DNA from: Escherichia coli
Lineage (GTDB): Bacteria > Pseudomonadota > Gammaproteobacteria > Enterobacterales > Enterobacteriaceae
Length of the DNA: 64,000 nt
Assembly (NCBI RefSeq): GCF_048403405.1
Contig: NZ_CP183129.1
Direction: 5' to 3' (one strand)
This document shows, one piece after another, positions 43,521 through 46,007 of the stretch. How positions within the stretch are numbered: position 1 is the stretch's first letter; every line of letters starts with the position of its first letter. Position numbers and translations under genes: made by a program. The notes under the pieces are model-generated. The model made no database searches and had not been told where the DNA came from. It saw only the letters and a program-made list of their open reading frames with translations.

Positions 43521-44057
43521 ATGTTACGCGATAAATTTATTCACTATTTTCAGCAATGGCGTGAACGCCAGTTAAGCCGTGGCGAACACTGGCTGACACA
43601 ACACCTGGCGGGGCGTTCTCCGCGTGAAAAAGGCATGTTACTGGCAGCGGTAGTGTTCCTGTTTAGCGCCGGATATTACGTCCTCATCTGGCAGCCGTTG
43701 AGCGAACGGATAGAACAACAGGAGACGATGTTGCAGCAGCTGGTGGCGATGAACGCGCGACTGAAGAGCGCCGCGCCGAATATTATTGCGGCGCGAAAAT
43801 CCGGCACGACAACGCCAGCACAGGTATCGCGGGTCATCAGCGACAGCGCTTCCGCGCACTCTGTGGTCATCAAACGGATTGCCGAGCGTGGGGAGAATAT
43901 TCAGGTCTGGATAGAACCTGTGGTGTTTAATGACCTGCTGAACTGGTTAAAGGCGCTGGATGAAAAGTACGCGCTGCGGGTGGCACAAATTGATGTCAGT
44001 GCGGGTGAGAAGCCTGGGATGGTGAATGTGCAGCGACTGGAGTTTGGGCGGGGGTAG
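43521..44057 (+). CDS. gspM: type II secretion protein GspM (YghD)
   Basis: 178-aa ORF MLRDKFIHYFQQWRERQLSRGEHWLTQHLAGRSPREKGMLLAAVVFLF... with single TM helix. Confidence 0.85.
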   Translation: MLRDKFIHYFQQWRERQLSRGEHWLTQHLAGRSPREKGMLLAAVVFLFSAGYYVLIWQPLSERIEQQETMLQQLVAMNARLKSAAPNIIAARKSGTTTPAQVSRVISDSASAHSVVIKRIAERGENIQVWIEPVVFNDLLNWLKALDEKYALRVAQIDVSAGEKPGMVNVQRLEFGRG

Positions 44058-44692
44058 GTATTGCCATTTCCTTAACCCCACCTGATAACCCTTAGCCCAA
44101 TGGTGAGTGCGGAACTGTCAAACCCGCTCACCGGGCTGAGTTTCGATGTAGCAAGAATTATCTCCCTCCAGACCACCACGGAATATTCGGTAACACTGAA
44201 GGAACCTGTTTTTCACCATGTAGCCTTCGTTAATCGACACCTTTCTCAGACTGTAAAGTTGCTTAAGTGTTTTGACACATTATGATTATTAATAGTTGTA
44301 ATAAATCATTGAGTAACAATTGATAGGCAAAAACATATAGGATAATTCTAGTGTGATCTGTATTTTGTGTAACCTGGAAGTTAGTAAAATTCCTGGAGAT
44401 AATCAGAAAGGGAATTTCAAATAAGCATAATAATTTCCAGTGAAACTATTCGTCGATTTTAAGAAATGTCTGCTCAGGTATATCTACTGAGGGATGGTGT
44501 TGGTTGTAACACTGGTTAAAATAAACACACAAAAATAATCAAGATGTATATTTTAATCGACAAAAATAATTACTCGCGGAATTATTGATGGGTGTTAAAT
44601 AACACCGTTTAAATGTGATGTAAATCACAAATGTGACTGTAAAGAGGGTGCTGTAGATATAAATAAGAAGTACATGAGTGAATTTTAAATAG

Positions 44693-45096
44693 GGAAATAG
44701 TTTCTTGCTAAACAATTTATTGGTAATCAATCGCATGCGTTCTGGTTTGAGATAGATTACAGGTGTTACTACGCATAAAATTCATGGGTGGTATTATAAT
44801 CAAGTAGTTAACAGTAATAGTGAAAAATAATTTCTTGCGAAATTAGCGGCCCGTTTTGAATAAGTGTGTTCCGGAGTAATCCAGAACGCATGCTGCTTTA
44901 CATCTTTTTCAAGCCATATTGGTTAAGCAAAAAGAAGTAGAAATAATTTCCTGAGAAATTAACTCAACATTCTGAAACGGCCAGTTTTCTGAAATTACCA
45001 GAAGACCGAATACATTCATGCCTGAAGAATGGATTAGAAGAAACGAGACGGAAATAGATCTATTTATCCCTGCGGAAATAATTTCTGCTGAAATTG
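44693..45096. repeat. four dispersed copies of a ~22-bp motif (GAAATAATTTCyTGmgAAATT) in the kpsM upstream region
   Basis: Copies at 44693-44718, 44822-44849, 44940-44960 and 45074-45096, spaced 117-135 bp apart, all in the same orientation. Confidence 0.6.
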
Positions 45097-45190
45097 TTTG
45101 CGGCTATTAAAAAGGTCAAACCGTCTGACTAAATTTTATCCAGTTACAAACAAGTATTACCTCCAGTGTATTGGTAGCTGTTAAGCCAGG

Positions 45191-45198
45191 GGCGGTAG
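45191..45198 (+). promoter_or_regulatory. ops element (RfaH recruitment site) in the kpsM leader
   Basis: GGCGGTAG core, 33 nt upstream of the kpsM start codon, within ccaggggcggtagcatacc. Confidence 0.75.
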
Positions 45199-45230
45199 CA
45201 TACCTGAAGAGAATAGGATCACATCACCAA

Positions 45231-46007
45231 ATGGCAAGAAGTGGATTTGAAGTCCAGAAAGTCACCGTAGAGGCATTATTTCTACGAGAAATACGAACAC
45301 GCTTTGGTAAGTTCCGTCTGGGATATCTGTGGGCGATTCTCGAACCCTCTGCGCATTTGCTGATACTGTTGGGCATTTTTGGTTACATTATGCACCGCAC
45401 GATGCCAGACATCTCGTTCCCGGTGTTTTTACTTAATGGCCTGATTCCCTTTTTTATCTTTAGCAGTATCAGCAAACGTTCTGTAAGTGCTATTGAAGCG
45501 AACCAGGGGCTGTTTAATTATCGCCCAGTAAAACCCATCGATACGATCATTGCGCGCGCCCTGCTTGAGACGCTGATTTACGTTTCTGTTTATATTCTGC
45601 TTATGCTCATTGTCAGGATGGCAGGCGAATATTTCGAGATAACAAATTTTTTACAACTTGTGGCTACCTGGAGTCTGCTGATCATTCTTTCATGCAGCGT
45701 CGGCTTAATATTCATGGTCGTTGGTAAAACCTTCCCCGAAATGCAAAAGGTTCTGCCGATACTTCTTAAGCCCCTTTATTTCATCTCCTGCATCATGTTC
45801 CCTCTGCACTCAATTCCAAAGCAATACTGGTCATATCTACTCTGGAACCCACTAGTGCATGTCGTGGAGTTAAGCCGTGAGGCCGTTATGCCTGGCTATA
45901 TTAGCGAAGGTGTGAGTCTGAACTACCTGGCAATGTTCACATTGATAACTCTGTTCATTGGTCTGGCGTTATATCGAACTCGTGAGGAGGCAATGCTGAC
46001 ATCATGA
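45231..46007 (+). CDS. kpsM: group 2 capsule ABC exporter permease
   Basis: ORF track 45171..46007; MARSGFEVQKVTVEALFLREIRTRFGKFRLGYLWAILEP... begins at ATG 45231. Confidence 0.93.
   Translation: MARSGFEVQKVTVEALFLREIRTRFGKFRLGYLWAILEPSAHLLILLGIFGYIMHRTMPDISFPVFLLNGLIPFFIFSSISKRSVSAIEANQGLFNYRPVKPIDTIIARALLETLIYVSVYILLMLIVRMAGEYFEITNFLQLVATWSLLIILSCSVGLIFMVVGKTFPEMQKVLPILLKPLYFISCIMFPLHSIPKQYWSYLLWNPLVHVVELSREAVMPGYISEGVSLNYLAMFTLITLFIGLALYRTREEAMLTS

Follow-up and report, generated by a model that had tools for sequence, protein, structure and literature searches.

Multi-operator repression loops with a spacing of ~115 bp are known for GalR (operators OE and OI, with HU) and for NagC, with CRP between the operators. 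The repeat analysed here, in the untranslated leader of region 3 of the Escherichia coli group 2 capsule (kps) cluster, resembles such loops in having dyad sites about 113-136 bp apart within or downstream of a promoter, with a bending-protein site in between, here the CRP site (about +250) between copies 2 and 3. It differs from them in presenting six sites instead of two, unequal half-sites, spacings that are not all integral helical turns and no known cognate repressor. A second likeness is to pause hairpins of the his/trp type and to RNA thermometers, which are also short weak stems in an attenuating or thermoregulating untranslated leader; an irrelevant loop sequence and a closing C-G pair are shared as well. 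Unlike these, the kps motif comes in six copies at long, even intervals, its arm sequence is conserved among copies and its stems have no following U-tract or defined pause sequence. To our knowledge, a ~130-nt phased array of pause hairpins has no precedent. The motif is not a classical thermometer since it lies far from the Shine-Dalgarno sequence, and a ROSE/FourU type was rejected, with the nearest copy ending 131 nt upstream of the kpsM ATG. The JUMPstart/ops element (RF01707) is comparable as a cis element on elongation with a small hairpin in the very same leader, but ops is unrelated in sequence, single copy and conserved across genera, and the repeat is not ops-like.

H-NS nucleation sites and the downstream regulatory elements of silenced operons (the proU DRE; the tCGATAAATT motif of Lang et al. 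2007) are the remaining comparison. They too are short AT-rich motifs with a central TpA, clustered in the transcribed part of an acquired, thermoregulated, H-NS-bound operon, and one kps copy lies within a mapped H-NS footprint. The kps motif, in contrast, is a strict 7-4-7 dyad with a conserved C/G at the spacer, occurring in six co-oriented copies ~130 bp apart; it matches the template at only 6-7 of 10 positions, and its first copy is not footprinted by H-NS.

The repeat site is the intergenic region between yghD (gspM-like) and kpsM, within a window of 64 kb, which is the whole stretch of DNA that was analysed. The kpsM gene lies on the plus strand and has its ATG at 45231; kpsT and region 2 come next downstream, while region 1 (kpsFEDUCS) is convergent and comes from the far side of the cluster. 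In extraintestinal E. coli, group 2 capsules (K1, K5, K2 and others) rank among the major virulence factors, and their expression hinges on the PR3 promoter and its unusually long leader. Allele conservation delimits the PR3 core as the invariant block TGATCTGTATT at 44354-44374 (plus strand), with TATTTT as its -10 element. In K5, PR3 transcription starts 741 nt upstream of kpsM (PMC8960920). Laying this distance on the Nissle K5 allele places the presumed start in the window at ~44374, 5 nt 3′ of the invariant block GATCTGTATTTTGTG, and the leader here would be ~857 nt long because 116 nt absent from K5 are present. The PR3 untranslated region attenuates the transcription arriving at kpsM and adds to temperature regulation (PMC5738388, PMC8960920). 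Its 3′ end carries the JUMPstart/ops RfaH loading site (45164-45202, plus strand; Rfam RF01707, 53.6 bits, E = 5e-11), with ops near +819 and separate from the repeat. A CRP site at about +250 and a second promoter, P2, near +245 have also been reported in this leader (PMC12360894). In the window, a near-consensus CRP site TGTGATGTAAATCACA is found at 44615-44630 (about +242..+257), with its core kept in all alleles; in EAEC 042 this site has already been described, with the internal P2 -10 hexamer TATAAA inside it (PMC12360894). The same hexamer reads TGTAAA here. This A to G change hits the critical second position and may leave P2 inactive in the present allele.

A repeat search returned six co-oriented copies of the motif, all on the plus strand and all within the transcribed PR3 leader, with starts at 44428, 44564, 44695, 44825, 44941 and 45076 (about +55, +191, +322, +452, +568 and +703). 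The initial annotation, made from the letters of the sequence, had recognised the last four on the same strand; all of them are present, but the count was incomplete. Its claim of regular spacing (130, 116 and 135 between those four) holds as well. The copy at 44695 is more diverged. Start-to-start spacings for the six copies are 136/131/130/116/135 (CV 0.055), a regularity that was never matched when six sites were placed at random 200,000 times.

What is conserved is a dyad, AAATAATTTC-N4-GAAAYTA, with a spacer fixed at 4 nt in 6/6 copies. Its symmetric core TAATTTC-N4-GAAATTA extends to AATAATTTC/GAAATTATT, that is, (AA)TAATTTC-N4-GAAATTA(TT). The palindrome GAAATAATTTC, noted in the initial annotation, occurs only in copies 3, 5 and 6. 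Its left GAAAT varies between copies and alleles, which rules out GAAAT-A-ATTTC (a palindrome we take to be IclR-box-like) as the conserved unit. Copy 1 (TAATAATTTC-CAGT-GAAACTATTC, 44428-44451, 29.1 bits) has an A.C mismatch that is kept in all alleles except one. It is followed by copy 2 (AAATAATTAC-TCGC-GGAATTATTG, 44564-44587, 32.9 bits) and by copy 3 (AAATAGTTTC-TTGC-TAAACAATTT, 44695-44718, 31.9 bits), the most diverged of the six and the first of those annotated initially. Copies 4 (AAATAATTTC-TTGC-GAAATTAGCG, 44825-44848, 30.1 bits) and 5 (AAATAATTTC-CTGA-GAAATTAACT, 44941-44964, 31.5 bits) are perfect 7-bp dyads, the latter with a nearly fixed spacer, and copy 6 (AAATAATTTC-TGCT-GAAATTGTTT, 45076-45099, 30.0 bits) can be drawn as a 10-bp stem with a U.G pair.

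Run over the whole window with filters off, a covariance model of the motif recovered only the six copies (29-33 bits) and their reverse strands, the next unrelated match scoring 15.7 bits (E = 1.4). The leader contains the word TAATTTC 4 times where 0.14 occurrences are expected (z = 10.7), and the consensus of the initial annotation, allowing up to 3 mismatches, finds 3 matches in the 64-kb window against 0.02 expected from shuffles. Stretches of ~100 nt between copies show no mutual similarity (z -1.0 to +1.9), and TRF reported no array at a score of 30 or more. A tandem repeat or minisatellite made by duplication of whole ~130-bp units is ruled out by these two results, which leave a short motif set regularly in unique DNA. 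As to a dispersed repeat of the REP/ERIC/MITE kind, there are no further full copies elsewhere in the 64-kb window and no motif matches in the plasmid and phage collections; the metagenome matches listed include no arrays besides kps leaders and are otherwise mostly single chance matches. An Rfam search of 43800-45600 at E ≤ 1 returned JUMPstart only, the repeat having no family match. The literature consulted does not mention the motif, and an earlier description is possible.

The leader was found in 1,621 of 5,426 complete E. coli genomes, in bands of ≥99%, 95-99%, 90-95%, 80-90% and 60-80% identity to this window, the lowest band being represented by a ~78% allele. We compared 28 distinct leaders from E. 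coli, E. whittamii, Escherichia sp. E1V33 and metagenomes, and the array is present in every full-length one. An alignment of kpsM upstream regions across serotypes, as the initial annotation had proposed, thus finds the motif kept in every Escherichia leader sampled and the spacing conserved. Variable sites amount to 20/108 in the arms, 286/655 in the rest of the leader and 23/24 in the 4-nt spacers (Fisher p = 4e-7 and 1e-7 for the contrasts). Pairwise divergence, when summed, comes to 0.071 in the arms and 0.138 in the remaining leader, compared with 0.160 at four-fold sites of kpsM and 0.357 in the spacers, values that indicate near-neutral unique leader DNA, protected arms and spacers evolving faster than neutral. 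The suggestion that the repeat exceeds chance AT-richness is borne out both by the non-random motif and by purifying selection in its arms (Fisher p = 4e-7). It is a real, selected and apparently undescribed cis element of the kps region 3 leader: a dyad in co-oriented copies, conserved in its arms, polymorphic in copy number and taxonomically restricted.

Spacers of copies 1-4 (44438-44441, 44574-44577, 44705-44708 and 44835-44838) take 6, 9, 10 and 3 distinct tetranucleotides, respectively, in the 28 leaders, with pi of 0.30-0.52 against about 0.13 in the flanks; those of copies 5 and 6 are almost fixed. As sources of this hypervariability, loop inversion was rejected, with no reverse-complement loop pairs seen, and Dcm hot spots explain only a part, with few changes fitting CCWGG.

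Spacing, measured in 13 leaders, is 135-136, 129-132, 129-130, 116 and 135, i.e. kept within about 1-2 nt. There are two exceptions. The most divergent allele has 10 nt inserted within copy 5, and the E. whittamii leader has lost 11 nt (about 13 nt net) from unit 4; the variants of copies 4 and 5 found in the latter are seen again in one E. coli leader. Copy number is polymorphic too. Leaders of the K5/Nissle type are missing exactly one unit of 116 bp, which runs on the plus strand from the spacer side of copy 4 to the left arm of copy 5 (44830-44945, the ends being ambiguous within the repeat). The junction lies inside the repeat, where recombination of copy 4 with copy 5 would be expected to leave it. 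Of about 1,621 complete genomes positive for kps, only 418 have the unit-4 spacer (for the most divergent class this count is a minimum), so that ~3/4 of kps-positive genomes carry five copies. A natural polymorphism of five versus six copies divides lineages. At the same chromosomal site, E. coli MS20658 has a group 3 capsule locus (L163, 2271-3000) that keeps PR3, copy 1 (spacer TACG), a shortened leader, JUMPstart and a frameshifted kpsM remnant.

Outside Escherichia, no array and no recurrent dyad was found upstream of kpsM in 35 loci from other Enterobacterales genera. Their kpsM homologues are 62-84% identical, with ops about 40 nt upstream of kpsM and shorter intergenic regions. The PR3 core block can be aligned with Pantoea, Phytobacter and Enterobacter, where it stands about 290-370 nt from kpsM; with the promoter block that much nearer the gene in other genera, the Escherichia leader is some 450-550 nt longer. 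Single dyads do occur upstream of kpsM in other genera (L013, 2547-2570; L019, 2548-2571; L021, 2531-2555). Candidatus Pantoea formicae (L024) has AATAATTTC-AATTA-GAAACCATC at the copy 1 position, around -232 from kpsM, and Rahnella has a copy-3-like AATAGTTTC-N4-TAAAC(T/C)AAT at -453, which apparently precedes the promoter block; the best model match has E = 0.12, and homology is therefore not secure. Upstream regions of other genera contain 15 occurrences of the left-arm word against 5.7 expected, 14 of the 15 in the orientation of kpsM; Rahnella contributes eight, and two lie in coding DNA. Such traces suggest an old single element that multiplied in Escherichia. Separately, a block at 44318-44374, AATTGATAG-N3-AAAAC...TAGGA followed by the -10 region, is conserved across genera (L009, L011, L024, L028, L030) and suggests a putative upstream factor site at about -55..-30 of PR3.

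Regarding what the copies do, the initial annotation had offered a regulator site, a nucleoid-protein site or an RNA element. A non-random element is supported; the substitutions lean towards a hairpin, and the context leans towards DNA-protein sites. Our preferred reading, a tentative one, is that the copies form hairpins in the nascent RNA or the non-template strand and act as attenuation points. The array probably helps the leader to throttle transcription of the capsule genes. Each copy would give a short AU-rich stem of 7-10 bp with a C-G closing pair and a 4-nt loop of any sequence, formed in the nascent leader RNA or, briefly, in the displaced non-template strand. Such stems could serve as spaced attenuation or pause points that slow RNA polymerase before it reaches ops and acquires RfaH, over 740-860 nt of untranslated, H-NS/StpA-coated DNA. 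Being marginally stable, they are expected to count more at low temperature, where they would add to the attenuating, temperature-dependent effect of the leader: predicted stabilities are about -1 to -6 kcal/mol at 37 °C and -3 to -10 at 20 °C, a predicted gain of 2-4 kcal/mol. If RNA or single-strand structure is indeed the active form, the array would be an unusual distributed attenuator upstream of RfaH loading.

The pattern of substitutions is what points to pairing. Standard pairs fill 83.9% of 360 pair cells, against 30-50% when the partner column is slid. Counted on the sense strand over the inner 7 bp, transitions exchanging Watson-Crick and G.U pairs number 9 (7 + 2) and those exchanging Watson-Crick pairs and mismatches number 2 (1 + 1); the leader background ratio for the same transition classes is 112:96. 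A symmetric duplex-binding protein should leave a 1:1 ratio, unlike the 9:2 seen here. The bias has a binomial p of about 0.03 (p = 0.035 for the polarised 7:1 subset), but with 11 events and a Fisher p = 0.06 versus the local background it is suggestive only. Copy 3 adds one compensatory change, from A-U to G-C, present in all alleles. All six copies are oriented with transcription and score 22-27.5 bits on the plus strand against 11-20 on the minus. We infer that selection acts on pairing and not on the duplex sequence and that RNA is the relevant strand, with the motif copies as candidate pause or attenuation sites.

Folding predictions are uneven across the array. Hairpins of copies 1-4 (-0.8 to -3.6 kcal/mol, z -0.6 to +0.5) are no better than shuffles; copies 5 (z = -2.4) and 6 (z = -4.1) do fold better than these, and only copy 6 is predicted to be strongly stable, at -12.1 kcal/mol with flanks. 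In a whole-leader fold, copies 1 and 3 are paired elsewhere. A globally conserved fold of the leader RNA was rejected, RNAalifold giving a covariation term of only -0.29 kcal/mol over seven leaders. Loop-loop complementarity between copies was likewise discarded for want of a consistent pattern, with one exception, the E. whittamii leader (L006), in which copies 4 and 5 could form an 18-bp duplex.

Alternatively, and only slightly less likely in our view, the copies may be protein sites in duplex DNA. They would then be phased sites of high affinity or nucleation for H-NS/StpA filaments and/or dimeric helix-turn-helix operators (for SlyA or another regulator, such as a LuxR/GerE-type factor), jointly building a temperature-responsive nucleoprotein roadblock on the leader. 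H-NS footprints at PR3 extend over -135..-21 and +141..+219; repression at 20 °C depends on the 3′ one (PMC8960920). Copy 2 (+191..+214) falls inside that 3′ DNase footprint together with an isolated, invariant half-word, AAATAATCA, that has no dyad partner (44533-44541, plus strand, about +160); copy 1 (+55..+78), however, lies between the two published footprints and in neither, and copies 3-6 are outside the mapped ones. In vivo, kps is covered by H-NS/StpA filaments (PMC9765446). With TpA at its centre, the left arm (ATAATT) is similar to the template tCG(t/a)TA(a/t)ATt and to the footprinted fis-1 site GCGATAATTA (PMC2094087), but the match to the template is the partial one given above, judged by eye, and the conserved C...G around the spacer is unlike H-NS features. 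Other DNA sites are known in the leader, namely the CRP site at about +250 and promoter P2 (PMC12360894).

The anatomy itself argues for an operator: 7-4-7 dyads whose half-sites are conserved and whose spacer is constant in length but free in sequence are the classic form. Sequence, and not pairing alone, is conserved among the six paralogues, including the internal mismatches of copies 1-3, and RNA stems are weak. A conserved arm sequence of this kind, with its copy-specific mismatches, is more typical of sequence-specific recognition than of structural RNA. The Rahnella dyad, too, is apparently upstream of the promoter block. Against this stand the unequal conservation of the two half-sites, the left arm being the more conserved, and the 9:2 pairing-preserving bias and the compensatory pair, which a symmetric duplex site does not predict. 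Adjacent spacings are also not all integral helical turns, and 5-6 nt indels occur. A helical-phase rule was considered and rejected: indels of +10, -11 and -116 point that way, but others of -6 and +5 were found as well, and two of the five spacings amount to a half-integral number of turns. The SlyA consensus TTAGCAAGCTAA is matched poorly (4/12). Among the consensus sites of Fur, FNR, CRP, ArgR, Lrp, NagC/Mlc, RcsAB, EvgA and SlyA, none fits both half-site and spacing, and a text search of the literature found no bacterial factor with a TTTC-N4-GAAA site.

Weak motif-like elements upstream of PR1 also count in favour of the protein-site reading. Two were found on the minus strand upstream of kpsF/PR1, a copy-6-like GGAAATAATCAATTGATAAATTGTTT at 62749-62772 and a copy-5-like AATAATCTCCTGAAAAAT at 63012-63035. 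The first, at about -118..-89 of PR1-1, is inside the published H-NS II/SlyA footprint (-121..-79). Each scores 10.7 bits, however, against 22-27 for true copies, no better than several matches in coding DNA; real but weak (region shuffle p = 0.036), they are kept as a lead only. Older papers from the Roberts laboratory reportedly noted short sequences common to PR1 and PR3. Should the copies prove to be protein sites, they could show how H-NS/SlyA complexes are positioned or reveal a missing regulator. For either the hairpin or the protein-site reading, the conserved repeat offers concrete targets, six 24-nt sites, for asking how the leader attenuates and thermoregulates.

A more elaborate form of our preferred hairpin reading, which we regard as unlikely when taken whole, allows us to speculate that the array is a temperature-tuned, co-transcriptional "speed-bump" system setting how many polymerases survive H-NS and Rho to reach ops and RfaH. 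It would be a distributed attenuator of a new kind, would have expanded in Escherichia from a single ancestral, promoter-near copy and would now be polymorphic, with 5 or 6 copies, among pathogenic lineages.

That the copies are functionless relics of a palindrome that once spread or was duplicated, serving now only as a recombination substrate as in the 116-bp deletion, seems to us improbable. The 116-bp unit is dispensable in about 3/4 of kps-positive genomes, copy 5 is split by 10 nt in one allele class, the group 3 locus retains copy 1 only and leaders of other genera do without an array, all as expected of a relic. Yet the rate of change in the arms is about half that seen in the leader around them and at four-fold sites, with spacers changing freely, and this protection holds in alleles down to 77% identity, in E. 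whittamii and in Escherichia sp. E1V33. Spacing, moreover, survives within about 1-2 nt despite 12-25% substitution, and motif similarity is retained where the unique inter-copy DNA has none remaining.

Least probable of all, and in our view very doubtful, is that the left arm AATAAT is a -10-like element of an internal promoter or a sigma70-dependent pause signal: it equals TATAAT at 5/6 positions, its two invariant columns, A3 and T7, match the -11A and -7T that are key in such elements, and the leader does contain an internal promoter, P2 (PMC12360894), but the -10 mutations of P1 and P2 largely abolish the activity of a 440-bp EAEC 042 fragment that should include copies 1-2 (PMC12360894), which argues against copies as promoters, a promoter-like scan gives 5 sites against 4.5 +/- 1.7 in shuffles, and the conserved right arm and fixed 4-nt spacer are left unexplained.

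Two minor observations concern the immediate surroundings of individual copies. Just 5′ of copy 6, at 45053-45066, there is a perfect 14-nt palindrome, AAATAGATCTATTT, with a GATC Dam site; it overlaps a partial dyad with the left arm of copy 6 and is not kept in other alleles. Copy 4 is flanked by a 16-nt inverted repeat (44733-44748 and 44878-44893, 94% complementary), whose 3′ arm lies within the 116-bp unit missing from K5-type leaders and in which the differences of the most divergent allele are, by eye, mostly G.U-compatible.
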